Assembly: GCA_964579335.1 (NCBI GenBank)
Contig: CAZOFS010000001.1
Location: forward strand, 11,196 to 75,195
Origin: an uncultured Bdellovibrionales bacterium
GTDB taxonomy: Bacteria; Patescibacteriota; Minisyncoccia; Moranbacterales; UBA1568
Direction of reading: 5' to 3'
DNA length: 64,000 bases
Within the stretch, counting starts at the first letter, position 1. Each line of letters begins with the position of its first letter. The position numbers and the translations under genes are program-made. Below are positions 36,882 to 58,860 of this stretch, piece after piece. The notes under the pieces are model-generated. The model did not search any database and was not told where the DNA came from. It saw only the letters and a list, made by a program, of their open reading frames with translations.

Positions 36882-36968
36882 ATATCTTCCAAATTATAGC
36901 CTATTCCACCCTCTTGCGTAAAGAATTTTCCCTTAAAAAAGCCATTATCATTCGATTGAGTTGGAGAC

Positions 36969-38567: not shown

Positions 38568-39595
38568 CGTCGCAACAGCTTCTGGAAAAAACGGGCGTAT
38601 CTTTCTTTGGTCACGGATGCTGAAAAATGTTCCCGACAATAAGCAACCCCTCCAATACCGAGGGCAGCCCGTTTGGCTGCCTCTCCGAGGAGGAAGTCTA
38701 GGTTATTATACCAATCCGCCTTATTTTTGCATAAAATAGCCGGCGAACCCACGTATGATGGTACTTCACTTGCTATGACTGGGAGGCCAATAGACATGGG
38801 ATAGCCGATTTTGGTAAAGCTATGCCCCAAATTATACGATTGCGTCAAGTCCCGAGGGGCGATAAAGATGTCTCCATCGAGCATCTGCTCATGGATGTGC
38901 TTTTGTTGATAAGGACGATAAGCAACATCTATCCCAGGTATGGAAAGGCGTGGATTTTTTTCACAAATGAGCAGTAGGCTAAAGTCATGTTTTTGCCGAA
39001 GCTTTTGGAGTACCTCTTGGATATCTAAAATTTCAGGCGCTTTAACGGCATAGCCGACATAGAGGAGTTTCAGGGGGCGATTAGCAAGAGCCATTTTTTT
39101 TACAGAAAAGAACGTGTCACTGATGTTTTCTGGGATACAAACAATCGGTTTTTCAGGAAAGAACCGTTTCGCATAGTCTTGAATGTAGTCTGTGCTCGTG
39201 ATGACTCCATCGGCTGTTTCCGTAAATCGGAGAATCTTTGGATGGTTGGCTGACTCATCTTGATTGAGGACTCCGAGGATCGTCTTATCGTAATAGTTGA
39301 CATTGATGTCGAGAATGATTTTAACACCCTGTTTTTTTAATTTTTTGGCAAGTTGCAAAGCTTGCTCATCAAATTTTTTCTGGAAAATGACAATATCGTA
39401 ATGCTTCCACGGCTTGTAGAGCTCTACAAAGTACTCATCGCTCGATTGGAAGTTATTGATGACGTCATAAGCCCTCAAACGTGTGGAAGCCATGATGCGG
39501 CCATAGTAGGGGGTAGGCCAAACGCTCAAAACAAATCCAATCCGTTTTTTGCGGCTAATAATAAACGATTTCAAAAATTCTCGAAGGAGAAACAT
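38564..39595 (-). CDS. Glycosyltransferase (GT-B fold, GT4-like)
   Basis: Architecture and C-terminal FIAPRDLTQSYNLGHSFTKIGYPMSIGLPVIASEVPSY donor-binding-like region. Start codon abuts the stop of the upstream GT2 gene. Confidence 0.5.
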   Translation of the reverse strand: MFLLREFLKSFIISRKKRIGFVLSVWPTPYYGRIMASTRLRAYDVINNFQSSDEYFVELYKPWKHYDIVIFQKKFDEQALQLAKKLKKQGVKIILDINVNYYDKTILGVLNQDESANHPKILRFTETADGVITSTDYIQDYAKRFFPEKPIVCIPENISDTFFSVKKMALANRPLKLLYVGYAVKAPEILDIQEVLQKLRQKHDFSLLLICEKNPRLSIPGIDVAYRPYQQKHIHEQMLDGDIFIAPRDLTQSYNLGHSFTKIGYPMSIGLPVIASEVPSYVGSPAILCKNKADWYNNLDFLLGEAAKRAALGIGGVAYCREHFSASVTKERYARFFQKLLRR

Positions 39596-43506: not shown

Positions 43507-43893
43507 TTATTTTTTTTGAGAAATTTCTTTGAGCGCATCCTGACGAGTAAGTACGGTCATTTGCTGCTCGAGGTACTCGATAGCTGACAATAGTTTGAAA
43601 ATAATGAGGAAAACAAGAATGAATCCAGTTAGAATAACTGCATTAAGGTTCCCTTCAATACCGATTATACGCGCTAATGTATTGGTAAGCCCAGGAAAAA
43701 CAACAATCGCTGCCATGCCGCCCCACACGACGATACGAACTCCAATCTTGAGGAGTGTTTGATGATCTTTGCCTTTAAAGAAATTACTCAGGCCTTGATA
43801 GATCATAGCCCCGGCAATGATGAGGATAATAACTTGGTAGAGCTGGAGATTCTCGAATTGCATACGAGTCGGATTTAAGAAATAATGTTCCAA
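43507..43893 (-). CDS. DUF2304-like small membrane protein (GT2-associated)
   Basis: About 120 aa with three TM helices. Immediately downstream of, and overlapping, a GT2 gene, the typical context for this family. Alternative start at MQFENL (43863). Confidence 0.5.
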   Translation of the reverse strand: MEHYFLNPTRMQFENLQLYQVIILIIAGAMIYQGLSNFFKGKDHQTLLKIGVRIVVWGGMAAIVVFPGLTNTLARIIGIEGNLNAVILTGFILVFLIIFKLLSAIEYLEQQMTVLTRQDALKEISQKK

Positions 43894-44588
43894 ATAATCT
43901 TATAGAGTGTTTTGAGGCCATTCACAAACCCTTGTTTTTGAATCTTTCCCATAGAATATTCAGTATAGCGTACCTCGATGGGTACCTCAGCATAACGCAG
44001 TCGGTATTGATAAATCTCACGGATCACCTCGCTGTCATATTCATAGCGATCTGTCTTGGTATTGATCCGATCAACCGCAGAGCGAGCATAGGCGCGAAAG
44101 CCGGATTGGCTGTCAGAGACGTAGAGTCCATAGAAGTACCAAGTAATAACATTGCCAATCTTGTTGGCGATAATTTTATACCATGGCATACCCTCAGGAT
44201 TGATAAGGCGAGTACCAAGCGTTACTTCGCATTGTTTTTTCTGGATGGGCTCAATAAGTTTGGCAATATCCCTCGGGTTGTGTTGCCCGTCGCTATCCAT
44301 GGTAATGATCACTTCTGCTCCCAGCAACTTCGCGGCTTCGATACCAGTTTTGGTAGCTGCTCCTTTGCCACGGTTGAGCCGATGGCGGAGGGTCATGACC
44401 CCAGTTTTTTGAGCCACAGCAAAAGTATCGTCTCGGCTTCCATCGTCTACCACAATGATATTGTGGTACCCAGCCGTATGAATTTCTCGTATGACACTCT
44501 CAAGTACCTTGGCTTCATTGTAAGCAGGGAGGACAACATATAGCAATGGCTGTTGGGGAGAAGTTGGCTCCATAGCGTTAGTGAGCAA
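43875..44588 (-). CDS. Glycosyltransferase family 2 (polyprenyl-phosphate sugar synthase-like soluble domain)
   Basis: LYVVLPAYNEAKVLESVIREIHTAGYHNIIVVDDGSRDDT and TMDSDGQHNP. Confidence 0.75.
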   Translation of the reverse strand: MLTNAMEPTSPQQPLLYVVLPAYNEAKVLESVIREIHTAGYHNIIVVDDGSRDDTFAVAQKTGVMTLRHRLNRGKGAATKTGIEAAKLLGAEVIITMDSDGQHNPRDIAKLIEPIQKKQCEVTLGTRLINPEGMPWYKIIANKIGNVITWYFYGLYVSDSQSGFRAYARSAVDRINTKTDRYEYDSEVIREIYQYRLRYAEVPIEVRYTEYSMGKIQKQGFVNGLKTLYKIIWNIIS

Positions 44589-44675: not shown

Positions 44676-45614
44676 CTACGATTCTTCTCGTAGTCTCGCT
44701 TTAAACCACGTCACTGTAGCCGTGATACCTTCCGAGATAGCTACTTCAGGTTTCCATCCAAGGAGGGTGGTGGCTTTGGTCGAGTCGAGGGCGCTTCGCT
44801 TGACTTCGCCTGGCTTGGCCGGCCCATGACTCGCTTCAAAGGCTTTGCCAAATTGCCAGTTAACCAAACGGAAAATTTCATTCACGTTTGTTTCTTGGCT
44901 CGTACCAATATGGAAGATCCCCTCAGTGAGTTCTGAATCAAGGGCTGCGAGGTTGGCTTTGACGACATCGCTCACATACACGTAGTCCCGAGTCTGTTCG
45001 CCGTCACCATTGATGATCGGAGCTCGACCCTCGAGCATAGCACTAGTAAAAATAGCGATCACCCCAGCCTCACCGTGTGGGTTTTGACGTGGGCCATAGA
45101 CATTGCCGTAGCGGAGCACGATGTAGGGGAGCGAGCGTTCGCGGTGGTAAAACTTGAGGTATTCCTCAACCCCGGCCTTGGCCAGACCATAGGGTGAGAG
45201 GGGGGTCATAGACTCCTCTTCAGTGGCTGGGTAGTGGGCTTCATCACCAAACATAGCGCCACCGGTGGAAGAAAAGATAAACTTCTTAACCCCGGCTTTG
45301 GCGGCCATGTCCATGAGTCGCAGGCTGCCAAGGATATTGCACTCAGCATCGATAATAGGATTCTCAACCGAGGCGCGGACATTGATTTGCCCTGCAAGGT
45401 GAAAAATAGCCTCGGGCTCTACACGCTTGAAGACGCTTTCGAGCTTCTTTTGATTGGCAACATCGCCTTTGATGAATTTGGCCCGGCGATTGAGATTCTC
45501 CTCTTGGCCCGAAGAAAGATCGTCGAGCACGGTCACTCGATGTCCTCGATCGATTAACGCATCTACAATGTGGGATCCAATAAATCCTGCCCCACCAGTA
45601 ACGAGTATACGCAT
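44676..45614 (-). CDS. NAD-dependent epimerase/dehydratase (GalE/UXS-like extended SDR)
   Basis: MRILVTGGAGFIGSHIVDAL, YGLAK, and RYGNVYGPRQ. Start placed at MRILV (45614); the ORF is open to 45629. Confidence 0.75.
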   Translation of the reverse strand: MRILVTGGAGFIGSHIVDALIDRGHRVTVLDDLSSGQEENLNRRAKFIKGDVANQKKLESVFKRVEPEAIFHLAGQINVRASVENPIIDAECNILGSLRLMDMAAKAGVKKFIFSSTGGAMFGDEAHYPATEEESMTPLSPYGLAKAGVEEYLKFYHRERSLPYIVLRYGNVYGPRQNPHGEAGVIAIFTSAMLEGRAPIINGDGEQTRDYVYVSDVVKANLAALDSELTEGIFHIGTSQETNVNEIFRLVNWQFGKAFEASHGPAKPGEVKRSALDSTKATTLLGWKPEVAISEGITATVTWFKARLREES

Positions 45615-45640
45615 AGATTGATAGCTCAATAATACCCATT

Positions 45641-45737: not shown

Positions 45738-46679
45738 ATGAATAACGAACAACCGTGGCTTTCTGTTGTTGTCCCGCTGTATAACGAAGAGGGCAATGTG
45801 GTTGAGCTACACCAAAAAATTCTTACCGCTCTCGAGAAGCTTGGACGGCCGTTTGAAATTATTTTTGTGGACGATGGTTCTCGAGATGGGACGCTCGAGC
45901 AAGCGCGTAGCCTGACGCCTCTGAAGCTTATCGTCTTTCGGAAAAATTTTGGTCAGACAGCTGCTTTTGACGCGGGGATTAAAGCTGCTCTCGGTGAAGT
46001 TATTATTACCCTCGACGGCGATCTTCAAAATGATCCCAATGATATCCCACTCCTTCTCGCCAAAATGGATGAGGGCTACGATGTGGTTTCGGGTTGGCGC
46101 CACAAACGTCAGGATCCGTGGAGTAAGAAGATTCCTTCACGCATCGCTAACCTTCTCCGCAAATTCCTCATTCACGACGATATTCACGACTCTGGCTGTA
46201 GTCTCAAAGCGTACAAACGCGAATGCTTCAAAGATGTAGATCTCTTTGGTGAGATGCACCGTTTTATCCCAGCCATTTTGCAACTTGAGGGCTATCGGGT
46301 AGGGGAAGTCAAAGTGTCGCATCACCCGCGCCTCCATGGGGTCACCAAATACAATTGGAAACGCGGTTTCAAGGGACTTGTCGATATGATTTCCATTTGG
46401 TTTTGGCGTAAATATTCGCATCGGCCACTCCATCTCTTTGGGGCGAGTGGTGTAGTATTGTCTCTTCTCGGAGGCGCAATTCTTCTGTGGATGGTAGTCG
46501 AAAAGTTCTACTTTGACGCTTCCATCGCTGATCGCATCTGGCCCCTGGTTGGAATCTTCTTTACTCTTATCGGGGTGCAGCTTTTCATTTCAGGGCTCCT
46601 CGCCGATATTGCGGTCAGAAACTACTATCAGAATCGCCATCGGATGAATTACAATATCCGGGAAGTGCGGGAGCAGTAG
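45738..46679 (+). CDS. GT2 polyprenyl-phosphate glycosyltransferase (GtrB/DPM1-like) with C-terminal TM helices
   Basis: LSVVVPLYNEEGNVVELHQKI...EIIFVDDGSRDGT, LDGDLQNDP, and two C-terminal TM segments. Confidence 0.75.
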   Translation: MNNEQPWLSVVVPLYNEEGNVVELHQKILTALEKLGRPFEIIFVDDGSRDGTLEQARSLTPLKLIVFRKNFGQTAAFDAGIKAALGEVIITLDGDLQNDPNDIPLLLAKMDEGYDVVSGWRHKRQDPWSKKIPSRIANLLRKFLIHDDIHDSGCSLKAYKRECFKDVDLFGEMHRFIPAILQLEGYRVGEVKVSHHPRLHGVTKYNWKRGFKGLVDMISIWFWRKYSHRPLHLFGASGVVLSLLGGAILLWMVVEKFYFDASIADRIWPLVGIFFTLIGVQLFISGLLADIAVRNYYQNRHRMNYNIREVREQ

Positions 46680-46790: not shown

Positions 46791-48101
46791 ATGAAACTTT
46801 CTTTTCTCGGGACAGGCTATGTGGGACTGGTGTCGGGGGCGTGTATGGCCGAGATCGGGCATGAGGTGATTTGTGCTGATGTGGATAAAGACAAAATCGC
46901 CAAACTGAAAAAAGGGGTCATCCCGATTTATGAAATTGGGCTTGAGGAAATTGTCGAGCGCAATGTGCGGGAGGGACGACTGCGGTTCACCACTGACCTC
47001 AAGGAAGCGGTCCAGACATCGGAGGTAGTCTTTATGGCAGTCGGGACGCCCGAGGACAAGCTTACCGGCCAAGCGGATCTCCAGTATGTGTTTTCAGCTG
47101 CGGAAGTATTTGGCAAGCACTTGAATGGTTACAAAATCTTCGTCGATAAATCCACAGTGCCAGTAGGGACTGCGGAGAAGGTAGAGACTATTATTAAGCA
47201 AGCTTCCAAGGGTAAACATCCATTTGAAGTGGTTTCCAATCCTGAGTTTTTGCGTGAAGGAGCAGCGGTCAAAGATTTCCTCAATCCTGATCGGGTAGTG
47301 GTTGGGGCGACTTCTGCCAAGGCCAAAAAAATCATGGAGCAGATTTATCGACCGATTGCTCGGGCGGGGCGGCCAGTAGTGTTTACCGATGTGCGGAGTG
47401 CGGAGATCATCAAATATGCGGCCAATGCTTTCCTTGCTATGAAGATTACTTTCATCAATGAGGTGGCTAATTTCTGTGATGTAGCTGGTGGCAATGTCAA
47501 AGAAGTGGCTCGAGGTATTGGTTGCGACAATCGGATCGGTTCACGTTTCCTCTACGCCGGTATCGGTTATGGTGGATCATGTTTCCCCAAAGACGTGAAA
47601 GCTCTGATTGAAACGGGTCGTGAGTATGATGCCCACTTCCATATTATTGAAACGGTGAGTGAGGTCAACGAAGCCCAACGCATCAAACCATTTATCAAAC
47701 TCAAGAACGTGTTTGGTGATTCGCTCAAAGGGAAGACGGTTGCTGTCTGGGGTCTTGCTTTCAAGCCACGGACTGACGATATCCGAGAGGCACCTGGGAT
47801 TGAGAATATTAAACTCTTGCTTGAAGCAGGCGCTCGGGTCAAGACCTTTGATCCGGTAGCGATGCCCAACACTCAAAAAGTACTGCAGCATAAGAATCTC
47901 ATCTATACCAAAAAAGCCCTCGATGCCCTCAAGGGAGCTGATGCGCTCATTATCTGTACCGAGTGGGACGAGTTCCGGGTGGTAGACTACAAGGACCTAC
48001 GAAAGCTTATGAAGGGCACGCTCATCTATGATGGTCGCAATGTCCTCGAACGTTCCGAGGCCGAGGCTGCCGGTTTTACGTACTTTGGGATTGGAGTCTA
48101 A
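46791..48101 (+). CDS. ugd: UDP-glucose 6-dehydrogenase
   Basis: N-terminal FLGTGYVGLVSGACMAEIGHEV, the catalytic region GGSCFPKDV, and a length of 436 aa. Confidence 0.85.
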   Translation: MKLSFLGTGYVGLVSGACMAEIGHEVICADVDKDKIAKLKKGVIPIYEIGLEEIVERNVREGRLRFTTDLKEAVQTSEVVFMAVGTPEDKLTGQADLQYVFSAAEVFGKHLNGYKIFVDKSTVPVGTAEKVETIIKQASKGKHPFEVVSNPEFLREGAAVKDFLNPDRVVVGATSAKAKKIMEQIYRPIARAGRPVVFTDVRSAEIIKYAANAFLAMKITFINEVANFCDVAGGNVKEVARGIGCDNRIGSRFLYAGIGYGGSCFPKDVKALIETGREYDAHFHIIETVSEVNEAQRIKPFIKLKNVFGDSLKGKTVAVWGLAFKPRTDDIREAPGIENIKLLLEAGARVKTFDPVAMPNTQKVLQHKNLIYTKKALDALKGADALIICTEWDEFRVVDYKDLRKLMKGTLIYDGRNVLERSEAEAAGFTYFGIGV

Positions 48102-48190
48102 GACAATAATCAGTTATCAATTAGCAATCGACGAAGAGAGAATTATTTCAGGTTTTGTTAACTGCTTATTGTTTATTGATATTTGTTCCA

Positions 48191-49353
48191 TGAAGATTTT
48201 ATTTTTGAACTACGAATACCCGCCTTTGGGGGGCGGGGCGGCCAATGCCACGGCTCAGCTCCTGGCGGAATGGTCGCGGGACAGTGATCTCGAGGTGCAT
48301 CTCATTACCTCGAGTATTACGGCACATCTCGAACATGAGCGAGTCGGAGGCAAAGTGTATGTGCATCGTTTACCTATCGGAAAAGATTCAAAACGTCTTC
48401 ATCATCAGTCTATCAAAGACATTGTGCTTTATAGCGTCAAAGCCTGGTGGTTTGGGCGGAAACTTTTACGTGAACAAGCGCCTTTTGACGTGACCCTCGC
48501 TTTTTTTGGCGTGCCCTCCGGTTTTATCGCCTGGCTTTTTCGACAGAGCTTTGGCATTCCGTATGTCGTTGCTCTCCGCGGGTCCGATGTCCCTGGCTAT
48601 AGTCGCAAATTTACCTGGTTGTACCCACTGCTTCGCCCAGTCATTCGTCTCATTTGGAGAGGAGCAGGAGCGGTGGTACCCAATAGCGAGGGACTCGCGG
48701 CCTTGGCCCGCCAAACCGATCCACGACAAGTTTTTACCATTATCGAAAACGGAGTCGACACGAGGCAATTTATGCCTGACCCAACCAAGCGCCCAGTGGG
48801 GGAATGTATCATTACCCCCGGAGCTTCACGCGTGACAGAACGCAAAGGACTCAAGTATCTGATCGAGGCGGTAGCCGAGCTCATACCGCATTACCCGGAA
48901 CTCCGGCTCAAGATCATGGGAGATGGTGAGGCACGCCCAAGTTTGGAAGCGCTTGTGAAAGAATTGAAGCTTGAGGCTCATGTCACTTTTCTCGGGCGTG
49001 TCCCGAGAGAAGAGACGGCCCCACATTATCAGGAAGCCTCGCTCTTTGTCCTTCCATCACTCAATGAAGGGATGAGTAATGCTATGCTTGAGGCGCTCGC
49101 CTCGGGACTCCCTATCATTGCCACACCGACCGGTGGTACGGCTGAGCTTGTGACTGAAGGCAAAAATGGTCTGATTGTTCCAGAGAAGTCAGCTGATGCT
49201 TTGGCTCAGGCTATCGAAGTATTCCTCAAAAACAAACATCTTATCACCGAGTATGGCGTTGCGAGCCGGGCCAAAGCCGAGGCACAGGGCTGGGATAAAA
49301 CTGCCCAAGCTTTTTATCGTGTACTTGAAAGCGTAATCACCAAAACAGCTTAA
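48191..49353 (+). CDS. Glycosyltransferase family 4
   Basis: MKILFLNYEYPPLGGGAANA and NEGMSNAMLEALASGLPIIATPTGGTAELV. The ORF is open from 48028 but would overlap ugd, so the start is placed at 48191. Confidence 0.7.
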
Positions 49354-50333
49354 TGTCCTTAACTTTGAAACAGATACTTAAGTGGGGGATAGCTGGACTT
49401 CTTGTCTGGTGGCTTATTGGACATGTTGACTGGATTACGGTTCTTGGGATTCTCAAGCAGGTTTCGTTGCCGCTTATTGGACTCTACTGCGTGCTCCAAC
49501 TCGTAGGCAATCTTCTCTCGGCGGCCAAATGGCAAATGATTGCCAAGACCCAAGGCTTCACCTTCTCGCTTCGGGATGGATTTTTCAGCTATCTTTCGGG
49601 AGCCTTTATTAATAATTTCCTCCCATCGACGATCGGTGGAGATACGTACCGGACTCTGTGGATGAGCGAGCCCGGGAAACGTTTTGAAGCCTTTACCGTC
49701 GTTCTCTTTGATCGCCTGAGTGGACTCCTTGCTCTCTTTCTCTCAGCAGCGGTAGGACTCTTCTTATTGCCGTGGCAAGCGTTTATCGCTGATCCAATTC
49801 TCATCATTATTGGGCTCGTCATTATCAGTATGACGGTGTGTATTCTTATATCGCTTTTTTGGTTTACGGGCCTCTTTGAACTAGTCCTCCTCATTGTTGA
49901 TTGGGTACCGTTTGCGATCTTTGAACGTATCAAACAAATGATCGAGCGCTTCCGGCCCTTAATTGAGATCGATCTCTATCTGAAGTCGCTTCTCTACTCA
50001 CTCGTCTTTCTTGGGATTGGCGTTGGGCTGTCCAACCTTTTTCTCTGGCAGGCGCTCGGGGCCCCGTTCCCACTCCTTACTTTCTTTGGCTGTATCTTTC
50101 TCGCGACCCTCATTGCCAATATTCCTATCTCGGTCAACAATATCGGTGTCAAAGAATGGTCGTATATCCTCGTTTTTGGTCTGGTCGGTGCCTCGCCTGA
50201 GCTTGCGGTAACCGCAGCCCTCCTCTCCCGTCTCCTCCAGATGCTCCTCTCATTCATCGCCGTCCCAGCGTATCTACGATTCAAAAGAGTTGCTAATAAA
50301 CAGGCGCTTAGTTTATCTCAAGTTATTGAATAG
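49353..50333 (+). CDS. Lysylphosphatidylglycerol-synthase-TM-domain (UPF0104) family membrane protein, flippase-like accessory
   Basis: 326 aa with about 8 TM helices. KWQMIAKTQGFTFSLRDGFFSYLSGAFINNFLPSTIGGDTYR resembles the LPG_synthase_TM family. Start overlaps the GT4 stop by 1 nt. Confidence 0.55.
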   Translation: MSLTLKQILKWGIAGLLVWWLIGHVDWITVLGILKQVSLPLIGLYCVLQLVGNLLSAAKWQMIAKTQGFTFSLRDGFFSYLSGAFINNFLPSTIGGDTYRTLWMSEPGKRFEAFTVVLFDRLSGLLALFLSAAVGLFLLPWQAFIADPILIIIGLVIISMTVCILISLFWFTGLFELVLLIVDWVPFAIFERIKQMIERFRPLIEIDLYLKSLLYSLVFLGIGVGLSNLFLWQALGAPFPLLTFFGCIFLATLIANIPISVNNIGVKEWSYILVFGLVGASPELAVTAALLSRLLQMLLSFIAVPAYLRFKRVANKQALSLSQVIE

Positions 50334-50508: not shown

Positions 50509-52413
50509 TCACTCCTTCTCAAACCGGACGATGTTGACGAAGTTGTCTGGGCGACCGTTGATGAGGAGTTCCCAATCGGGACGGTTTTGGACCTTATCTA
50601 CGTAGTAAGCGGTATCACGTTTGGGCCAGGGGTTGTTTTTGAGCACGGGCTGATTGCGGACTTTGATGACCCCGCGTTTGGACATGACGAAGTAATCGGG
50701 AGTAACTTGGGCGAGATCGATTTGGCGTGACTGGAGACACTTGCCAACGAAGAAACGGCAGACGGTATTACTATTGGACCAGATGATGAGGTTCTTCGCA
50801 TCGGGGAGCGTGTTGAGATATTCGGCTGCCTCATAGAAGCCATGGCCCCAGGAGTCATGGATGGATTGTTCGTTTGGCAGAAGGAAGTTGGTATAGCTGA
50901 AATAAAATGGTCGGAGCTGCCACAAGGTAATGGCACCGAGGATGAGGAAGAAGAGAGCGAGAGCGATCCAGGCTTTCTCGTGAAGTTTTGCTGGTACCAA
51001 GCGACGCACCCATTCATCGATGGTGAGGGCTCCGGCGAGGGCTAAGAGTGGGAAGAGGAAAATCATATAGCGGGCATTGGTCACTACCTTGGCAAAATAG
51101 GTCGCTACGAGATACAAGATAACGAATGAAAATACCGCTAGCAGTACGGTCTTGGTGCGAGGACTGAAGATATCGCGCCAGAGGCCAATCAAGCCAAGGA
51201 GGAGGGCGAGGAATACGATGGGAGTGAGTGAAAACACTAAGGGTGAGATTTCCATGATGCCAATTGCAAACCACTTTTCCCAAAATGGGGCCGTCTTGAG
51301 GAGTACGGGTTTGAAGTTGAAGGCCTGGGGTTCATTGGCATAAGCCGCATCTTTGAGAGCTTCGACTGGAACCAAAGCCTGACCAGTCCAGGCGTTAACG
51401 ATGGTTATGAGAAACACCGTACTAAAGAGGATGACTACAGTTTTGGTAATGACTGATTGGAAATTTCTGATCCAAACCTGGAATTTCGCCAACCGATCAT
51501 CAGTGCACCATTTCCAAGCGAGAAAACTGGTGATGCTACCGAGGACGAGTAGAGCTACCCAGTAGGGTACATGTTTGGCGGTAAAAAATTGTGAAGCTCC
51601 TTTGAAGAAGAGGCTGGGGTCGAGAAAGGTGGCTGGGAGTACTATGAAAAAAGTTAGGGTAGCTAGGCCAAAAATCTTGAGGAGGGCGAGGAAGTGTTTC
51701 CAGGTATTATGACGAGTGAGCGTAGCCTTGGCTTCATCGGTAGCAAACAGCGCATAGCCCAAGAGCAAGAGTCCGAAGAGAGGAAAGAGGAGGAAAGCCG
51801 TGTATTTGGAGAGGAGCGCGAAGCCAGTCATGAGACCAGTCACGAGGAGCAGGCGGGGATGACCACGAAAGAGGAAGCCGAGGTACGAGAGTACCGAGAG
51901 GAAACCGAAGATCCAGAAAAAGCTGTCAGGGTTGATCACCTGGGCGATCCCCACGAGGATAGGATTGAGACCGATGAGGATGGTAGCGAGGAGTGCGATG
52001 GTGGTTGATTGGAAGATAGAGTGGATGAAAAAGAAAAAGGCGATGAGGGCGATGGTACTGACGACAAGAATGGGGAGACGGAAGCGAATATTGACGAGTT
52101 CGGTCTGATCTTCCCGGTAGTCCTCAAAAAATTTGGCCTCCTCGGGTGGGAGGGCGACGAGTTCGCTTCGTTCGGGATGAGCGTCGGGGATGAGGCCGAT
52201 GCCAGAAAAGATAGCGACGGTGATGCCGGGTTTGTCATTGATGTAGGTTTTCTCGAGTTTCCAGTCGCGCCAGCCTTCCCAGTAGTCGCCGATGCGTTTG
52301 TATTTCCAGAGATGTTCATCGGTGGTCTCAAATTTTCCGAGATGGTACCAGCCAAAACTGGCGAAGAGAAACGCGGTAAGGAAGGCGAGACTAATGGCAG
52401 CTGAACGTGACAT
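50509..52413 (-). CDS. GT-C family membrane glycosyltransferase (ArnT/PMT_2-like), paralog of 52425-54788
   Basis: 634 aa with about 13 TM helices. First-loop motif TDEHLWKYKRIGDYWEG...DKPGIT is shared with the neighbouring paralog. C-terminal soluble domain. Confidence 0.55.
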   Translation of the reverse strand: MSRSAAISLAFLTAFLFASFGWYHLGKFETTDEHLWKYKRIGDYWEGWRDWKLEKTYINDKPGITVAIFSGIGLIPDAHPERSELVALPPEEAKFFEDYREDQTELVNIRFRLPILVVSTIALIAFFFFIHSIFQSTTIALLATILIGLNPILVGIAQVINPDSFFWIFGFLSVLSYLGFLFRGHPRLLLVTGLMTGFALLSKYTAFLLFPLFGLLLLGYALFATDEAKATLTRHNTWKHFLALLKIFGLATLTFFIVLPATFLDPSLFFKGASQFFTAKHVPYWVALLVLGSITSFLAWKWCTDDRLAKFQVWIRNFQSVITKTVVILFSTVFLITIVNAWTGQALVPVEALKDAAYANEPQAFNFKPVLLKTAPFWEKWFAIGIMEISPLVFSLTPIVFLALLLGLIGLWRDIFSPRTKTVLLAVFSFVILYLVATYFAKVVTNARYMIFLFPLLALAGALTIDEWVRRLVPAKLHEKAWIALALFFLILGAITLWQLRPFYFSYTNFLLPNEQSIHDSWGHGFYEAAEYLNTLPDAKNLIIWSNSNTVCRFFVGKCLQSRQIDLAQVTPDYFVMSKRGVIKVRNQPVLKNNPWPKRDTAYYVDKVQNRPDWELLINGRPDNFVNIVRFEKE

Positions 52414-52424
52414 AGGGAGAAGGA

Positions 52425-54788
52425 TTAGGGATTGAGATGAAATACTTTGACCGTTTGGCCTGAACGACCATTGATGTTAATGGTATAGAAAGCATCATCA
52501 CGCTGATAATAGCTATCGAGATGGGTGAAATCTTGAACATGAGTTTCGGATGGAGCATCAATAGGATTCACTCGATTACGAATGCGAGATTCACGACCAG
52601 AAGAGAGTACAAGGTAGCGCACGGAATACCCTTCAATTTTTTTGAAGTTGAAACCATCAAAACAGGGACCAATATAGAATTTGCATACACCGCTCTTGTC
52701 AGTCCAGATAGCAGTGACGTGTGCGTTTGGGAGTCTGTTGAGGTATTCGGCTGCTTCATAACTGCCTGCCCCCATATCTTTGACATCGACCGACAGAGTG
52801 TTGGGGAGCAAGGATGAATTGTAGGAAAGGGGGAATGGAGTGGTGAGTGGTGAGAATACCAGGAGGAGGACGAGAGTTAGCAAGGTTGGGTGCCAGAGAG
52901 AAGGAGTATCGAGAGATCGGTGAAAGCGCTCCAAGAGCGTCTTGAGGCCCCAGGTGAGGCCAATACCACTGAGTATGGCAAGGAGAGGATAGAGCATGAT
53001 TTGATAGCGGTTGATGAGGGCTACTTCATTGATCGTAGAGCCGAGATAGAAGAGGAGGATAAAGAGGAGAAGTATGAGTACGAGGCGTTCGGTGACTCCT
53101 CGCCCAGCGGGGCTCGTGCGCCAGGTTTTGACGATAGCGATGAGGCTTCCGAGAACAATGAGGGGGACAGAGCCAAAGAGGAGTGGATAGCCGTGTGCAA
53201 GAAAGATAGACACGAGGCCATAGAATTTGGAAATACTTTTGGGTGAGGTGAGAATTTCAGTGAAGTTGAGCCAAGGCATACCAGTTATCCCATTGATAAA
53301 GACAAAGGCAAAGAGGAGGCTAAATGTCGTGAGGATGAGGATGGTAATCACTTGAGCTGAGCATTCCAGCCAATGAATAACTTTGGTGCTGAAACGACTC
53401 TTGAAGAGGAGTTGATCCAAAAAGACGATGAGAATAATGGTGATGAAGAGCCAAGCTACTTTCTCAAATGCTTGGCTGAAAATAGTGCTCGTGAGGAGAC
53501 GGGCTGGGTTGACCCAAAAGGCGGGGACCGCCACATAAAGGACGCTGAGGCCAATGCCGAGCCAAATAAAAAAAGCCTGAAGGGAATGTTTGAGCGTCTT
53601 GGGCGTGGCATGACCTTTCCAAATTGGGTAGAGGAAGACGAGGCCAAACAAGAAGACAACCAAAAAGTTCGCCACGTATTTGGTGAGGAGAGCTAGTCCA
53701 AAAAGAACACCCGAGAGCACGAGGAAGCGCCAAACCTTTTTTTCAATGAAGACGAGATAGGCGAGGAGTGAGAGGGGGGCAAATATCCAGAGGAGTGAAT
53801 CAGGATTAACGATTTTACTGATCCCAATGAGTATTGGGGCGAGCGTGATCCCAGCATAGCTTATGAGAGCCGCCTTGGGTCCGATGAGAGGGAAGAGAAG
53901 GAGATAAAAGAGGGGAAGTAAGCAAGTGATGACGATAAGGAGTGGTAGGCGAAAGGCGAGATAAAAATGCTCGATTTTGAGCGCAGGGTTTTTGGCCTGA
54001 TATTCGTAGCGAGTGTCGCGATAGTGGCTCGGATCTACTACGAGGAGTGCTGGGCCAGTGCTCCAAACGATAGTGATGCCTGGTTTATCGCTCACGAGAG
54101 TTCTCTCCATAGCCTGGGCCGAGAGGTGTTTCCAAAATTTACCAATTCGACCATCGAGCCAGAGTGGTTCATCGACGGCAGCAAAACGGGCCAGGTTCTG
54201 GAGGCCAAAGAGGAGAAAGACCAGTGTCAGTCCCGTTATCCACAAGAGTGCCCAGCGGCTTCCGTGGTCGTGCCAGGAGAGAGGAGAGAGAATAGTGGTT
54301 GGTTCAGTATCATTTGATTCGTGCTTTTCGCGTACAATGAAGTTTCTCGCCCAGTAAGTAAATATTCCTATGACATAGAGTCCGACAGAGAGATCAACGA
54401 GATAATGGAACTCTCGAGCTAATATGAGACCAATACTGAGTATGAATGCTACGGGGAAAAAAGAAATGAGAAGACTGCGGCACAAAAGAGTATCAATATG
54501 ACGGCTGTGTTGCCAGGTGATCCAAGTAGTCATGATACTGAGGATGGGAAACGTCACATAGAAGCAATCATTACTCAAAAACCAACTCAATCTAGCTAAG
54601 GGTAGCCAGGGTTGGGCAACAAAGAGAAGGGTAATGAGAGTGAGGAGTGATCGGAGGATGAAAAGAGGAGTGGGTCGTAACATAAAAAAACGTAGACAAG
54701 CGCCAAAAACGGCGTAAAATAAAGAGGTCAGGGGACTCAAAACAGCCTCAGTATAGCGTAATTTCTTCCAAAAAGGAATCACATGCAT
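52425..54788 (-). CDS. GT-C family membrane glycosyltransferase (ArnT/PMT_2-like) with an N-terminal TM extension
   Basis: 787 aa. AVDEPLWLDGRIGKFW...DKPGIT aligns with the DE..LW...RIG..W...DKPGIT motif of the 50509-52413 product. C-terminal beta-rich soluble domain. Confidence 0.55.
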   Translation of the reverse strand: MHVIPFWKKLRYTEAVLSPLTSLFYAVFGACLRFFMLRPTPLFILRSLLTLITLLFVAQPWLPLARLSWFLSNDCFYVTFPILSIMTTWITWQHSRHIDTLLCRSLLISFFPVAFILSIGLILAREFHYLVDLSVGLYVIGIFTYWARNFIVREKHESNDTEPTTILSPLSWHDHGSRWALLWITGLTLVFLLFGLQNLARFAAVDEPLWLDGRIGKFWKHLSAQAMERTLVSDKPGITIVWSTGPALLVVDPSHYRDTRYEYQAKNPALKIEHFYLAFRLPLLIVITCLLPLFYLLLFPLIGPKAALISYAGITLAPILIGISKIVNPDSLLWIFAPLSLLAYLVFIEKKVWRFLVLSGVLFGLALLTKYVANFLVVFLFGLVFLYPIWKGHATPKTLKHSLQAFFIWLGIGLSVLYVAVPAFWVNPARLLTSTIFSQAFEKVAWLFITIILIVFLDQLLFKSRFSTKVIHWLECSAQVITILILTTFSLLFAFVFINGITGMPWLNFTEILTSPKSISKFYGLVSIFLAHGYPLLFGSVPLIVLGSLIAIVKTWRTSPAGRGVTERLVLILLLFILLFYLGSTINEVALINRYQIMLYPLLAILSGIGLTWGLKTLLERFHRSLDTPSLWHPTLLTLVLLLVFSPLTTPFPLSYNSSLLPNTLSVDVKDMGAGSYEAAEYLNRLPNAHVTAIWTDKSGVCKFYIGPCFDGFNFKKIEGYSVRYLVLSSGRESRIRNRVNPIDAPSETHVQDFTHLDSYYQRDDAFYTININGRSGQTVKVFHLNP

Positions 54789-56561
54789 TGGTCAAAAAAG
54801 CAAGTAGTGTGGGGAATGATTTTTCTCATCGTAGGACTTGGTGCTTGGCTTCGGGTGTATCACCTCGATGATTGGCTTCACTTCGAACTCGATCAGGCTC
54901 GAGACGTGCGGGTGATCGATATCGCTCTCGAGGGCGATCTAGCTGATCTCCCGCTTTTGGGTCCTCGGGCTGGCGGGACTTTCCTCCGTCTCGGCCCAGG
55001 TTTCTACTGGCTCGAATACCTTGGCTCACTCTTGCTGGGTGACTCGGTAGTGGGGAGTGCAGCCATGGTAGCCTTCTTTTCCATTCTCTCTCTACCTTTG
55101 TTTTATCTTTTGGCCCGGCGATTTTTCCCCGTGCCGCTTGCTTTGGGACTCCTCGGACTCATGGCAGTCTCTACTTTTATGGTTATGTATGGTCGCTTTG
55201 CTTGGAATCCTAACCTCGTGCCGTTTTTCTCACTCCTCGGTTTCTATGCTTTGCTTCGCGCGGTAGATGATGAGGAATCACATCGGGGCCGGTGGCTCCT
55301 TCTCTCTGGATTCGCGCTTGCTTTGGCGACCCATATGCACTTCCTCGCCTTCCTCGCCCTTCCGACCATCGCCGTGCTTCTCCTCCTCATCAAACGTCCG
55401 CGTATCGCTCTCAAGTTTTGGGTGGGGGCGTTTGGTATTGTAGCCCTCCTGTATCTTCCAATGATGTTGAATGAAATAGCCACGGGTGGTGACAATGCCC
55501 GTGAGTTTGTGGCAGCTCTTACGGAAAAGTCTGAGAAAGAAGATCATCCACTGATTGAAAAGGCAGTACGGAATGTGAGCGAGTTTGGTCTCCATAGTGT
55601 AGTCATTCTTACCGGTTTTGAGGGGGCGACTTTCCCCTCGATTATCCTCTCCGACGGTGTGATTGGTTCGGTCTGTGATGCCAAGTGTGATCGAGGGAAA
55701 TGGTATGGGGTAGCAGCTATTATCCTCTTGGGTTTGGCACTCCTCTCGCTAACCTATCTCTGGTGGCGGGAGACAGAAACAAAGAAGAAGGACCTCTTAC
55801 TCTTGGCCCTTCTCTGGTTTGGGGTTACTTTTGTGCTTTACCTCCCTCTCTCCTATGGCATTGCTCCTCGTTTTTTTCTCCCAAATGCCCCGCTCTTTTT
55901 CTTGCTTTTGGGTTGTTTCATTCTTGTTTTACAAAGACTTTTTTTCTCAGTCCGACTGGGGAGAGCACTCATGGGAGGGGTAATAGGATTTTTTATCTTC
56001 ACCAATCTCCATTTTCTCCTCGCTCGTTTTGATGAATTATCACGGGCTGGGACCGAAGCAGTCGTCAGTGCCCCTGATCGCATCCTCAAAGAGCCGACTC
56101 GGGTGACGCTCGAGCAACAAAAAGCCATTGCGGACTTCCTCGCACGGCGCTCACAGGAGAGTAGCCTACCGATTTATATGGCGAGTGAGTCGCATTATGA
56201 ACGAGCGCTCAAGTATCACCTCGATCAGCGTAGGCTAGAGAGTGATGGTCTCGGTATAACTCATATTTACCGAGAAGGCCTCTATTTCCTCATCATTCGG
56301 GCTACCTCAGACCATACTGACGCACTCGAGAAGTATCTGCCGCATTATACGGTCGGTGAAACCATTTCTTTTGGAACGCTGGTGGCGATCGAACTTGTAC
56401 CCAAGCAAGAATCAATTACAGCCGAGCGCCAGGATTTCTTCGCTCCCGAAAAGCCAATTCGTTCCCGTGTGGCCCCACGCTATACGCTGCGTGAGTTCCT
56501 TTCTCGGGAAGAACCAAACAAAGACAGTGATGATCCAGCCGAGGATGTACAGGATGAGTGA
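54783..56561 (+). CDS. Polytopic membrane protein, GT-C-like (ArnT/PMT_2-type), with a C-terminal soluble domain
   Basis: 592 aa. The first loop HFELDQARDVRVIDIALEGDL has a DQ-AR acidic motif, followed by about 11 TM helices. Divergent from the previous gene, with abutting start codons. Confidence 0.45.
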   Translation: MHWSKKQVVWGMIFLIVGLGAWLRVYHLDDWLHFELDQARDVRVIDIALEGDLADLPLLGPRAGGTFLRLGPGFYWLEYLGSLLLGDSVVGSAAMVAFFSILSLPLFYLLARRFFPVPLALGLLGLMAVSTFMVMYGRFAWNPNLVPFFSLLGFYALLRAVDDEESHRGRWLLLSGFALALATHMHFLAFLALPTIAVLLLLIKRPRIALKFWVGAFGIVALLYLPMMLNEIATGGDNAREFVAALTEKSEKEDHPLIEKAVRNVSEFGLHSVVILTGFEGATFPSIILSDGVIGSVCDAKCDRGKWYGVAAIILLGLALLSLTYLWWRETETKKKDLLLLALLWFGVTFVLYLPLSYGIAPRFFLPNAPLFFLLLGCFILVLQRLFFSVRLGRALMGGVIGFFIFTNLHFLLARFDELSRAGTEAVVSAPDRILKEPTRVTLEQQKAIADFLARRSQESSLPIYMASESHYERALKYHLDQRRLESDGLGITHIYREGLYFLIIRATSDHTDALEKYLPHYTVGETISFGTLVAIELVPKQESITAERQDFFAPEKPIRSRVAPRYTLREFLSREEPNKDSDDPAEDVQDE

Positions 56562-58860
56562 TATGATGTATCGATCTTTACTCAAGCGTTTCTTTGCGCC
56601 CCAATGTTTCTTGGGTCTGCTTGCTCTAGGTTTTCTCCTTGCAGCTTACCCCTCCACCGTACAAGGAGCGAGTTATGACTACTACGTCAAAGAGGGCGAG
56701 AATGGTGATGGAGGAGAAGATGATCCGTTTGGCTCAATCAAAGACGCCATCGAAGCGATTGATGATGATCGAGGAAAAAAGGTTTATGTAGCTTCCGGGA
56801 GCTATGGCGGAGAGGTGACCATACCCAAAGATACCACCATCGTCGGGAGCGATCCCAAACAAGTTACCATCACGGGTGATATGATTTTGGCGGATGGAGT
56901 TGAGCTCAAAAAGCTGGGTTTCAGTGGGGCTGGAGACGTGTTGGTGACCAAAAACGCTCGTGTCGTACTCGAAAATCTGCGGTTCAAGGATATCAGCCGG
57001 ACTGCTATCAAAACCGAGCCGGGGAACACGGTCTTGGTGTTGCGGGATTCGATGATTGAAAAGGCAGGTAAGGGCATGTACCTCCAGGCTGGGACGAGGG
57101 TCGAGATTGAAGGAGTAGAAGTGGTGGGCGGTCGCGAAGAGGGTATCGACATTCGCGAAAACGTGAGTGGCTATATCAAAAAGAGTAATTTCCGCAACAA
57201 TGCCGAATCAGGCATAGAGATTATTCTCGGGAGTGCTGAGATGGCCATTACCGACAATACGTTTTCGGGGAATGGGGCTAGTGGAGTAGCGGCCCAGTTT
57301 TTTGATGGAGCCAAGAAACTCGGTAATGTCCGCGTGGAAGGCAATACCTTTTCCAAAAATGATTGGGGAGTAGAGTGCAAGGCTCCTAAGGGACGGCTTG
57401 ACTCAAGTTTTTATTATCTCAATTCACTCAAAATTCTGAACAATGTGTATCAGAACAATAAGTCAGGTGAGATTGCTCCTGCCTGTAAAATTTTGACTGA
57501 TGAAGAGCGCTTGGCTTTTGAAAAAGAAGCAGCGGAGCAGGAAGCTCTCATCGCTGAGCGCAAAGCGACCCTCAATCTGAGTGAAGCCGTACTCGCTGAT
57601 CGCCTGAGTAAATCGATCGAATTTCGTACAACAAAAGTAGCACAGTATGCCACTGAAGAACGAACGAGGCTTGAGCCATTGTTTCAGACACTCAATCAAC
57701 TGACTGAGAATGGGAAACAAGAAGTAACTTCTCTCGCAGCCAAGCGCTCGGCTTGGACCTGCTATCTTTTGGGTGTCGAAGGGGATGTGGCCGAGCTCAA
57801 TCGAACCCTGGAAGCACTTGATAGGCTCCGTACTGAGCTGGGTCAAGCCAAAGGCACTCTCTATGAACCCAATCAGCTTACGCTTACCGCTCAGCTATCC
57901 GAGCTTGAGGCGCTGCAACAAAAAATCCGTGAGACGCTCGCCTCACCCATGTGCCGTTTCTCACTCCTTGGCTGGACCAGTCGCTTCTGGCCCCAACCTG
58001 ATATGGGGAAACTCTTTGGATTAGAACTCGAGACTTTGCAATGGCCAGAGGTCCAAGGTGAAGCCAAAGCTCTATTCCTCGGTCACTTGGGTTACTACCC
58101 ACGGGTGCGCGAAGTCGCGGTCCGCTCAGGAGATGAACGTCTTGTCGCGGGGCTCCTCGAAAGAGCCATGAGCTATGCGGCTATCATCGGCGATCTTCGC
58201 TACCCTCTCGGTGGGGCCGAGGATCCCTTGCCTCCTCCTCAGATGACGAGCGAGTATTCTTTCCCCGTGCGCTTTGGTAATATTTTCGCTGGCGCCAATA
58301 TCCGCGCGCTTCATGTGAGTGCTAGTCCAGCTCAAATACAAATTAATCCCGATGCCTTCAAAAAAACTGGGGCTAATTTGGCCTATGCCAATATTCAAAC
58401 CATCGGAGCGGTGTCGGGCGGGGTGAGGATTGCTGAGACACAGCTGGGTGAGAGAGTACTCCATTGGGTAGATTATCGTGAGGGCGAGAATCTCGACGTC
58501 CTCCGCCAGGCGATCACTCCTTTCACGTCAAACAATGAGCCGGTGGTGGTACTTCTCTCTTGGGATGAGAAACAAGGGAAGGTGATGACTCCCAAGCGAG
58601 AAGCGCTGGTGCGTGATTTGGTTCAAGCTGGAGTATCGCTCGTGATTGGTACTGGTGTTATGGCTCCATTTGAACAAAAGCTGGTTGACGGTGTCCCATT
58701 TTATTTCTCGCTTGGCTCAGCCTTTGAAAAGTTCCAAACGGGTGACGCGAGCAAAAAATCAGTGGCTCTCGAAATGCAAATTTCTCTTGAAGGCAAACTT
58801 GAAGTAGCCGAAAAGAATCTTAACTTCACCGCCGAAAAAGGTTTGGAAATCTTGCCATAA
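56554..58860 (+). CDS. Secreted multidomain protein: signal peptide, right-handed parallel beta-helix, coiled coil, and a CapA/PGA_cap-like C-terminal domain
   Basis: Signal peptide ...GLLALGFLLAAYPSTVQG/AS. PbH1-type repeats (VLENLRFKDISRTAIK, IEIILGSAEMAITDNTFSGNGASGVAAQF, VEGNTFSKNDWGVECKA). Heptad-rich region at 57480-57950. C-terminal AGVSLVIGTGVMAPFEQKLVDGVPFYFSLG resembles the CapA C-terminus. Start at ATG 56554; the ORF is open from 56356 but would overlap the upstream gene. Confidence 0.55.
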   Translation: MSDMMYRSLLKRFFAPQCFLGLLALGFLLAAYPSTVQGASYDYYVKEGENGDGGEDDPFGSIKDAIEAIDDDRGKKVYVASGSYGGEVTIPKDTTIVGSDPKQVTITGDMILADGVELKKLGFSGAGDVLVTKNARVVLENLRFKDISRTAIKTEPGNTVLVLRDSMIEKAGKGMYLQAGTRVEIEGVEVVGGREEGIDIRENVSGYIKKSNFRNNAESGIEIILGSAEMAITDNTFSGNGASGVAAQFFDGAKKLGNVRVEGNTFSKNDWGVECKAPKGRLDSSFYYLNSLKILNNVYQNNKSGEIAPACKILTDEERLAFEKEAAEQEALIAERKATLNLSEAVLADRLSKSIEFRTTKVAQYATEERTRLEPLFQTLNQLTENGKQEVTSLAAKRSAWTCYLLGVEGDVAELNRTLEALDRLRTELGQAKGTLYEPNQLTLTAQLSELEALQQKIRETLASPMCRFSLLGWTSRFWPQPDMGKLFGLELETLQWPEVQGEAKALFLGHLGYYPRVREVAVRSGDERLVAGLLERAMSYAAIIGDLRYPLGGAEDPLPPPQMTSEYSFPVRFGNIFAGANIRALHVSASPAQIQINPDAFKKTGANLAYANIQTIGAVSGGVRIAETQLGERVLHWVDYREGENLDVLRQAITPFTSNNEPVVVLLSWDEKQGKVMTPKREALVRDLVQAGVSLVIGTGVMAPFEQKLVDGVPFYFSLGSAFEKFQTGDASKKSVALEMQISLEGKLEVAEKNLNFTAEKGLEILP

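Follow-up and report, generated by a model that had tools for sequence, protein, structure and literature searches.

What do three large membrane proteins encoded side by side in an ultra-small bacterium do, and on what do they act? The genes, called A, B and C here, lie in a 64-kb window (the whole stretch of DNA analysed) from an uncultured member of the Moranbacteria, within the Patescibacteria or candidate phyla radiation (CPR). A first-pass annotation of the window had read all three as GT-C-like membrane glycosyltransferases.

Family, fold and first loop of A, B and C

All three ORFs were present where the first-pass annotation had placed them: A at 50509-52413 (minus strand, 634 aa), B 11 bp upstream of it at 52425-54683 (minus strand, 752 aa; the mechanical ORF runs to 54788) and C at 54783-56561 (plus strand, 592 aa). 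Each passed Pfam PMT_2 (PF13231, which covers GT39/GT83-like enzymes; gathering threshold 26.1 bits), with 31.9, 36.0 and 38.9 bits, respectively. The companion family PMT (PF02366; threshold 22.7 bits), proposed as a second check, was passed by A at 34.3 bits and was not reported for B or C; precomputed annotation places it in most B homologs. C represents another PMT_2 subfamily: it also passed the TMEM260-like Pfam model (25.4 bits, above cut-off), matched ArnT and Agl23 weakly in NCBIfam and showed no similarity to A or B by BLASTP. A and B are tandem paralogs, as had been proposed, aligning end to end at 28% identity (E 2e-51), with residue 2 of the shorter A paired to residue 177 of the 787-aa B ORF. 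More than 200 homologs of A, of about 630 aa, carry the source names GT39, ArnT family or phospholipid carrier-dependent glycosyltransferase.

The start of B needed correction. Its closest homologs begin at the residue aligned with M36 of the 787-aa ORF, the ATG at 54683; to judge from these homologs, that ATG is probably the true start of a 752-aa protein and the first 35 codons of the ORF are probably untranslated. With the start moved, a 6-bp head-to-head overlap with C disappears and a 99-bp divergent spacer remains (54684-54782). Inside it lies a promoter-like site, TAGACA-16-TAAAAT, at 54693-54720 on the plus strand, which is weak evidence for a promoter because the number of sites in the promoter and terminator scan as a whole did not exceed chance.

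An AF2 model of B (pLDDT 92, pTM 0.93) comprised 4+13 transmembrane (TM) helices followed by a C-terminal alpha/beta domain, and all of its strong structural matches were GT-C enzymes, upholding the earlier reading at the level of fold. A and B also share the first-loop motif that had been noted, in the form [TV]DE[HP]LW..(K/G)RIG.(Y/F)W...(N/S)DKPGIT. In B its acidic pair, D206-E207 (numbered on the 787-aa ORF, as are the B residues below; 54168-54173, minus strand), directly follows core TM1 in the model, where extracytoplasmic loop 1 begins, and is invariant in alignments of 32 and 117 sequences, as are N328-P329-D330 and K370-Y371. The pair in A is D32/E33 (nucleotides 52315-52320), and C has an acidic E35-L-D37 right after TM1. 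As for the side of the membrane, the density of Lys and Arg in B is twofold higher in the loops opposite the DE loop, which places that loop outside the cytoplasm as predicted; this positive-inside signal is weak as summed loop Lys and Arg (11.2 versus 6.4) and clear only as per-residue density. Neither the B family profile, A, C nor the C-terminal domains matched solved GT-C structures at the sequence level, so the putative catalytic residues are assigned from where they lie in the protein, not from an alignment residue by residue. That absence of sequence matches is what speaks for the three proteins being something other than glycosyltransferases, such as transporters, O-antigen ligases or polymerases, or inactive scaffolds. 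We regard this as extremely improbable.

The top Foldseek matches of the B model were the oligosaccharyltransferases STT3, AglB and PglB (GT66), over 600-700 columns, and the likeness extends to the layout, with 13 helices in the core and a globular domain at the C terminus. The domain in B (52428-52844, minus strand; about 139 aa) has an extracytoplasmic position, an invariant Cys pair and a fold that resembles the AglB-S2 core in structure only. Its WTDKxG segment presumably recalls WWDYG, the oligosaccharyltransferase motif of the C-terminal domain. We considered and rejected WTDKxG as a degenerate form of that motif: the TDK is not kept in A, which has WSNSN, and neither Pfam nor PDB sequence comparison supports it. 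In contrast to oligosaccharyltransferases, the proteins carry no WWDYG; Pfam gives no STT3 match, and the C-terminal domains show no similarity of sequence. It is very improbable that the three take a ready-made glycan from polyprenyl diphosphate and transfer it to protein or polymer. Instead, A, B and C are most likely PMT_2-type (GT39/GT83-like) enzymes of the GT-C fold that work on the extracytoplasmic face with polyprenyl-phosphate sugars.

The N-terminal extension of B

The first-pass annotation gave B about 170 extra N-terminal residues forming roughly four TM helices. The model bears out the four helices (model residues 4-21, 37-57, 63-86 and 92-120); the length falls to about 140 aa once the start is corrected (54264-54683, minus strand), a cytoplasmic linker included. 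Every B homolog of about 750 aa has the extension, with conserved F19, N36, F39, Y40, L70, P75, G83, S87, F90, H91, Y101 and W135 (model numbering).

Scanning 24 extensions at E values up to 10 returned only scattered noise and no Pfam family. A fused GtrA or DUF2304 protein was rejected after hhalign comparison with the GtrA and DUF2304 proteins of the window itself (probabilities below 1%). A profile search of 1.84 billion representative proteins recovered 41 clusters, all of them B-type fusions or fragments of such fusions; the short matches continue into the GT-C core, which speaks against a free-standing or widely reused module. The extension is a lineage-specific addition. The polar residues conserved in it sit close to the outer leaflet, and its inferred role is to assist binding of the lipid donor or of the acceptor.

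A bolder reading starts from a second protein of the window, of 685 aa (34824-36881, minus strand), in which four helices precede the helix before an invariant DLD (D170, D172). This polytopic protein matched no Pfam or NCBIfam family, and is placed among GT-C enzymes, as the first-pass annotation had it, by predicted structure only; hhalign of it and of a 556-aa protein against the B family gave nothing significant. The four-helix module would then define an undescribed 17-TM GT-C architecture, found in B and, independently in sequence, in the 685-aa protein. It would act as a built-in handler of lipid-linked donors, for instance a fused flippase or a donor-delivery channel replacing GtrA or ArnE/F, and the gene block described below would encode the core pathway to an envelope lipoglycan or glycoprotein coat specific to the CPR. 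We consider this combined proposal quite unlikely.

A recurrent gene block and the proposed donor pathway

Across Moranbacteria, the genes recur in a block that, drawn with B on the plus strand, reads C (-), B (+), A where it is present, then a flippase-like gene, a GT4 gene, a UDP-glucose dehydrogenase gene and an ArnC-like GT2 gene, these four all on the minus strand. Of 67 loci, 55 have C upstream of B in divergent orientation; the flippase-like gene follows B at a distance of up to 9 kb in 56 of 66. More than half of the loci have no A beside B, and the count of GT-C genes differs greatly, reaching seven tandem C-like matches at one locus (L083).

In the window, the block begins next to A with an LPG_synthase_TM or MprF-flippase-like membrane protein (49353-50333, plus strand; Pfam PF03706, 116 bits; TIGR00374 flippase-like domain above cut-off). 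Its family name makes it a candidate flippase, either of a lipid-linked sugar or of a glycolipid. Beside it are a cytoplasmic GT4 glycosyltransferase identified by family match (48028-49353, plus strand; syntenic in most loci), whose homolog matches begin at query residue 50-55 or so and whose true start is probably near 48190 on that comparison, and a TuaD-like UDP-glucose 6-dehydrogenase (46791-48101, plus strand; syntenic; NCBIfam NDP-sugar dehydrogenase 461 bits, TuaD E 2.4e-164). The next gene, also syntenic in most loci, encodes an ArnC/GtrB/PgfS-like GT2 with a C-terminal membrane part (45738-46679, plus strand), a putative polyprenyl-phosphate sugar synthase with full-length PDB matches to ArnC (E 2.3e-49), GtrB (sll0501; 2.5e-32) and DPMS (7e-20). 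Its NCBIfam scores, 179 bits on ArnC (cut-off 529) and 140 bits on PgfS (cut-off 500), are below the equivalog cut-offs. Divergent from it is a syntenic GalE-like NAD-dependent sugar epimerase or dehydratase (44676-45629, minus strand; NCBIfam GalE 203 bits, cut-off 262). The GT2 and GT-C genes are about 4 kb apart on opposite strands, so their functional link rests on conserved synteny only.

From this gene set we propose a pathway. In the cytoplasm, a nucleotide sugar would come from the UDP-glucose dehydrogenase, possibly assisted by the GalE-like epimerase; at the inner membrane face, the GT2 would place one sugar on polyprenyl phosphate; and the lipid-linked sugar would be flipped, with the adjacent MprF-flippase-like protein as the candidate. 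Outside, each GT-C enzyme would move the sugar to its acceptor by means of the loop-1 acidic pair (D206/E207 in B, D32/E33 in A), while the C-terminal extracytoplasmic domain probably helps to hold the acceptor. An old tandem duplication produced B and A, which probably differ in acceptor site or in sugar. GT2 and GT-C pairs studied experimentally in Gram-positive bacteria work along these lines (bioRxiv 10.1101/2024.05.05.592596). The sugar cannot be named, as the ArnT, ArnC, PgfS, PpgS and AglJ scores in the window are all below the curated equivalog cut-offs.

ArnT itself (GT83), the undecaprenyl-phosphate-L-Ara4N:lipid A transferase that is partnered by ArnC, is a distant relative with only 14% structural identity. 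Against its equivalog NF009784 (cut-off 567 bits), C scored 24 bits and A and B had no match, and B differs by its four additional N-terminal helices. Among the window ORFs scanned, ArnA, ArnB and ArnD families were absent and only the ArnC-like GT2 was found; lipid A is, to our knowledge, not expected in the Moranbacteria lineage. Three-component GtrA/GtrB/GT-C systems offer a parallel in that a synthase of the GtrB type is encoded with the GT-C genes (the sll0501 match above, in synteny). The window does encode a GtrA (30752-31156, minus strand; Pfam 70 bits), but in another operon about 20 kb away, and the PF03706 protein adjoins A and B instead.

That apparent operon (26999-31156, minus strand) also encodes a decaprenyl-phosphate phosphoribosyltransferase (29877-30755; NCBIfam NF008977, 276 bits, above the 234 cut-off), a PHP phosphoesterase recognized by its domain (29214-29870) and, at 26999-29209, a GT-C-like protein of 736 aa in which SDELGHE follows a TM helix. 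This last protein, already listed at first pass, has an N-terminal part of about 340 aa, and its PMT_2 score of 23.5 bits is just under threshold. A 495-aa protein (3906-5393, minus strand) with GQDEARH after TM1 passed both PMT_2 (38.4 bits) and PMT (30.0 bits) and is a GT-C glycosyltransferase, as called before. The polytopic protein at 36969-38567, also on the first-pass list, gained no family assignment. A further candidate polytopic protein at 40414-42309 was instead an asparagine-synthase-like amidotransferase. The three GT2 genes named in the first-pass annotation all had polyprenyl- or dolichyl-phosphate sugar synthases as their best family matches. Besides the GT2 of the block, they are a PpgS-like enzyme (43875-44588, minus strand; NCBIfam PpgS E 4.5e-46; PDB matches to DPMS and ArnC), followed by a small DUF2304 membrane protein (43507-43863, minus strand; Pfam 54 bits), and an AglJ-like enzyme of the dolichyl/polyprenyl-phosphate hexose synthase type (22327-23319, plus strand; NCBIfam AglJ E 1.3e-75, 254.6 bits, cut-off 325; dolichyl-phosphate hexose transferase 4.9e-29; PDB DPMS 1.5e-8). 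Beyond the A/B/C block, the window has three further polyprenyl-phosphate donor routes and GtrA.

Possible acceptors and what the locus means

As to the acceptor, we tentatively favour a cell-envelope glycopolymer or lipoglycan over proteins. On this reading the GT4 enzyme together with the flippase-like protein would produce a glycolipid anchor and export it, and outside the GT-C enzymes would lengthen or branch it, as builders or decorators comparable to mycobacterial Aft, Emb and Mpt, Gtr O-antigen modification or teichoic-acid glycosylation. The retention of GT4, UDP-glucose dehydrogenase and flippase-like genes beside the GT-C genes argues for it, as does the widely varying GT-C number, typical of variable surface glycans. 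So does the presence in the window of the phosphoribosyltransferase, GtrA and the PpgS-like GT2 with DUF2304, the donor toolkit of actinobacterial arabinogalactan and LAM assembly. The mycobacterial cell-wall set comprises the GT-C enzymes AftA/B/D, Emb and Rv3779 and the donor enzymes DPPR synthase (UbiA), PpgS/Rv3632 and the GtrA-like Rv3789. In comparison with that set, no DprE1/DprE2 epimerase was identified here, the phosphatase has a PHP domain instead of PAP2, and about 20 kb separates the phosphoribosyltransferase and GtrA-type genes from the genes for A, B and C.

It is possible, if somewhat unlikely, that the three are dedicated protein O-glycosyltransferases resembling actinobacterial PMT, streptococcal Pgf or GtrB/PgtC2, which would attach monosaccharides to Ser/Thr residues of secreted or membrane-anchored proteins such as pilins, S-layer proteins or a beta-helix neighbour. 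The PMT matches of A and of most B homologs point that way, as does the TMEM260-like match of C, to a family of protein O-mannosyltransferases; however, Pfam PMT and PMT_2 do not separate acceptor classes. The gene set, too, follows the logic of the S. mutans Pgf cluster (PgfS/PgfE/PgfM1/PgfM2) and of streptococcal GtrB/PgtC2: a GtrB/PgfS-like synthase with its 140-bit PgfS score, an epimerase beside it like PgfE in the Pgf cluster, and at least two extracytoplasmic GT-C enzymes; the family of PgfM1, PgfM2 and PgtC2 is YfhO and not PMT_2 (bioRxiv 10.1101/2024.05.05.592596). A secreted beta-helix protein (56554-58860) adjoins C in the closest relatives, but is gone from most loci. No ORF of the window has a Ser/Thr-rich stretch that might mark an acceptor, which is not decisive, and the rest of the window is typical of polysaccharide loci: it encodes an initiating phosphoglycosyl transferase, two flippases of the Wzx type, numerous GT2 and GT4 enzymes and at least nine methyltransferases.

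The proteins also depart from the GT39 protein O-mannosyltransferases (yeast Pmt1/2/4 and bacterial PMT) in having no MIR domains, a different type of C-terminal domain and, in more than half of the loci, no A beside B. Yeast Pmt enzymes have 11 helices, against 13 or 17 here.

In sum, A, B and C most likely attach lipid-carried sugars to something extracellular. Enzymes of this kind are already known, and for general glycobiology they are an expected extension of a known class and bring no new principle; the extra four-helix membrane module of B is unusual. Our literature searches turned up no publication about GT-C enzymes of Patescibacteria, and outside Saccharibacteria we know of almost nothing established by experiment about the cell envelope of this group. 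Here, Moranbacteria genomes share a conserved block in which GT-C enzymes occur together with a polyprenyl-phosphate sugar synthase, a UDP-glucose dehydrogenase and a flippase-like protein, and at least one Pfam-less family of hypothetical proteins in this lineage is predicted from structural models to be a GT-C enzyme. For expression and testing there are now specific residues (D206/E207), a model of high confidence and defined sets of genes.

Three neighbouring probable GT-C-type glycosyltransferases

ORF calling recovered all three genes that the first-pass annotation had placed in a cluster of GT-C-like membrane glycosyltransferases, namely A (50509-52413, minus strand, 634 aa), B (52425-54788, minus strand, a 787-aa ORF) and C (54783-56561, plus strand, 592 aa). 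For each, the Pfam PMT_2 score (A, 31.9 bits; B, 36.0 bits; C, 38.9 bits) lies above the 26.1-bit gathering threshold; A also passes Pfam PMT, and C also passes TMEM260-like. The adjacent A and B can be aligned across their full extent (E 2e-51, 28% identity), with residue 2 of A facing B-ORF residue 177, and the first-loop motif DE-x-LW...RIG..W...DKPGIT attributed to this pair is found in both (TDEHLW..KRIGDYW...NDKPGIT in A; VDEPLW..GRIGKFW...SDKPGIT in B). BLASTP detected no similarity of C to A or B, and hhalign matches C to the B-family profile (E 0.005) only in the neighbourhood of the conserved NPD/NPN segment.

We modelled residues 38-787 of B from a 117-sequence alignment (mean pLDDT 92.0, pTM 0.93). 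The model comprises four N-terminal helices, a linker, thirteen more membrane helices, the first loop of this core being 75 residues long, and a C-terminal alpha/beta domain. A Foldseek search of the PDB matched 31 GT-C chains at a probability close to 1, namely chains of STT3, AglB, PglB, ALG12, ALG9, Pmt4, Pmt1/2, AftA, ArnT, AftD and Emb; transporters stayed below 0.2, so that the model supports the GT-C fold predicted earlier over a transporter or O-antigen ligase fold. No PDB entry showed a detectable sequence relationship to A, to C or to the profile of the B family, which sets these families far apart from all GT-C enzymes of solved structure.

D206/E207 of B, directly after the first core helix, are invariant in 32- and 117-sequence alignments, as are N328-P329-D330, K370-Y371 and R594-Y595-Q596 (ORF numbering). 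Taking helix boundaries from the model and averaging over 116 family members, we found that short loops carry 0.18 K+R per residue where predicted to be cytoplasmic and 0.094 on the DE-loop side, a bias that puts the acidic DE loop outside the cytoplasm, where it had been expected. Twelve helices separate this loop from the C-terminal domain, which should thus lie on the same side; the domain carries an invariant cysteine pair across the B family.

A lineage-restricted extension within a conserved gene block

In the 32-sequence alignment, the N-termini of the closest homologs of B line up with M36 of the ORF, an ATG at 54683 that is probably the true start and would give a 752-aa protein. With this start, the 6-bp head-to-head overlap of B with C would disappear, a 99-bp divergent spacer would remain between them, and the extension of B relative to A would measure ~140 residues. 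Of the ~170 extra residues and roughly four membrane helices first ascribed to B, the model upholds the four helices, and the length shrinks. Inside the spacer falls the region's top-ranking promoter-like site (54693-54720), weak evidence given that the whole scan is at chance level.

Across the B family, F, N, FY, L, P, G, S, FH, Y and W of the extension are invariant or nearly so, and B-relative ORFs from 70 related loci have ~167-181 residues, with four or five hydrophobic segments, before the DE motif. The extension matched no Pfam family; an assignment as DUF2304- or GtrA-type was rejected, as it bears no resemblance to the DUF2304 and GtrA proteins encoded in the window. Its profile found only 41 clusters among 1.84 billion representative proteins, all of them the fused ~750-aa form or fragments running into the core. 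This lineage-restricted four-helix extension is a new result of the present analysis.

Homologs of B are ~750-aa proteins of Candidatus Moranbacteria/Moraniibacteriota (Parcubacteria group, Patescibacteria/CPR), named "glycosyltransferase family 39 protein" or "ArnT family glycosyltransferase" in their sources; those of A (~630 aa) come from the Moranbacteria lineage too and bear similar names. A scan of one genome per species yielded 228 stretches coding for a relative of B, almost all of them from Moranbacteria-type MAGs, and A, B and C genes also occur on metagenomic contigs. Many MAG records (loci L005-L082) are titled 'uncultured Bdellovibrionales bacterium' and show Moranbacteria-type gene order with proteins 40-90% identical; these titles are probably placeholders or wrong taxonomy.

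Searching 80 related loci with 20 window proteins (tblastn), we observed a conserved Moranbacteria gene block, likewise new here: RtcB, thymidylate kinase, a Wzx/MurJ-type flippase, a variable stretch, C (-), B (+), an optional A (+), an MprF-flippase-like PF03706 gene (-), GT4 (-), UDP-glucose dehydrogenase (-), an ArnC-like GT2 (-), a GalE-like epimerase (+) and a PpgS-like GT2 (+). Among the 67 loci with sufficient flanking sequence, 55 have C next to B on its upstream side, in divergent orientation. Directly after B comes A in 27/66 loci and the flippase-like gene in 26/66, the latter lying within 9 kb downstream in 56/66. In some Moranbacteria genomes, up to seven tandem C-like GT-C matches surround B (seven in L083, 462-13464), and long arrays in L079, L081, L063, L070 and L076 also suggest rapid family expansion. 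Only in the closest relatives does C adjoin a right-handed beta-helix gene (NosD/Beta_helix), here an 834-aa ORF (56356-58860, plus strand) overlapping C by ~200 bp. With its more likely start at M67 (56554, 768 aa), the product is a secreted-type protein with a signal-peptide-like segment.

Putative donor-sugar enzymes and further GT-C candidates

Three GT2 enzymes could supply lipid-linked donors. The GT2 at 45738-46679 matches ArnC (E 2.3e-49) and GtrB/sll0501 (2.5e-32) in the PDB from end to end, membrane part included, and scores 179 bits for ArnC and 140 bits for PgfS on NCBIfam, both under equivalog cut-offs. The PpgS-like GT2 (43875-44588, minus strand, E 4.5e-46) is followed on the same strand by a gene for a small DUF2304 membrane protein, an arrangement (43507-44588) that matches the pairing of M. 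tuberculosis Rv3631/Rv3632. The third is AglJ-like (22327-23319, plus strand, E 1.3e-75).

An apparent minus-strand operon missed at first reading (26999-31156) encodes a decaprenyl-phosphate phosphoribosyltransferase (276 bits versus an NCBIfam equivalog cut-off of 234), a PHP phosphoesterase, a GtrA-like flippase (30752-31156, minus strand, 70 bits) absent from the 180-aa ORF list, and a 736-aa GT-C-like protein with a ~340-aa N-terminal part and an SDELGHE loop motif. This set looks like a mycobacterial-type polyprenyl-phosphate-ribose (or arabinose) donor route in a CPR bacterium. The predicted structure of the 685-aa protein (34824-36881, minus strand) adds, as a further new result, a putative GT-C family without a Pfam entry. 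A 556-aa polytopic protein (36969-38639, minus strand) matched no family; its last hydrophobic segment is followed by a helix-LP/IP-strand pattern (SSLIKYILTEIPEDKIIMAS) resembling the start of the C-terminal domain in A, B, C and the 685-aa protein, and it may be another GT-C enzyme.

GC content is 0.35-0.38 in parts of the glycan locus (14001-20000, 30001-32000, 36001-38000) versus 0.45-0.54 elsewhere. Contigs otherwise ~100% identical to the window (L001/L002) are only 78% identical where the PpgS-like GT2 lies, and just beyond it their content is different; together, the GC dips and identity break suggest strain-variable, exchanged glycan cassettes. At least nine SAM-dependent methyltransferase genes, unusually many, lie among the glycosyltransferases (14138-26294, 31172-32674), suggesting a heavily methylated glycan. 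Two small genes outside the 180-aa ORF list, one for a KdsC-like HAD phosphatase and one for a cupin resembling the C-terminal type of mannose-6-phosphate isomerase, adjoin those for nucleotidyltransferase-domain and GatZ/KbaZ-like proteins, and these genes (13214-14137 and 10611-13224, both plus strand) may form an ulosonic or other unusual sugar pathway. A 115-aa four-TM Phage_holin_4_2 protein (2792-3139, plus strand, 100.8 bits) is encoded between the phosphoglycosyl transferase gene and the first GT-C gene. The pheT fragment is followed by a gap that contains bacterial RNase P RNA class A (873-1291, plus strand; Rfam RF00010, 108.9 bits), and no tRNA gene was detected by ARAGORN anywhere in the window.

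Proposed pathway and acceptor

The evidence on A, B and C fits a scheme in which a GT2 would load a sugar onto polyprenyl phosphate, the lipid-linked sugar would be flipped across the membrane, and a GT-C enzyme would pass the sugar on outside it. Such a scheme is well established, for instance in the Arn and Gtr systems and in the building of the mycobacterial cell wall. It has been shown by experiment in the streptococcal GtrB/PgtC2 and Pgf systems (bioRxiv 10.1101/2024.05.05.592596).

All specific ortholog models scored under their cut-offs, and no Ser/Thr-rich candidate acceptor was found encoded nearby. Protein glycosylation would make a protein the acceptor, a reading less favoured given that A, B and C sit in a large glycan locus with an initiating phosphoglycosyl transferase, Wzx-type flippases, many GT2/GT4 enzymes and numerous methyltransferases. 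No study of patescibacterial GT-C enzymes turned up in literature searches; proteins of the A, B and C type are already auto-annotated as GT39/ArnT-family enzymes, and our main finding is therefore an uncharacterised member of a known enzyme kind, whose glycan-locus setting tilts the acceptor towards a glycopolymer or lipoglycan.
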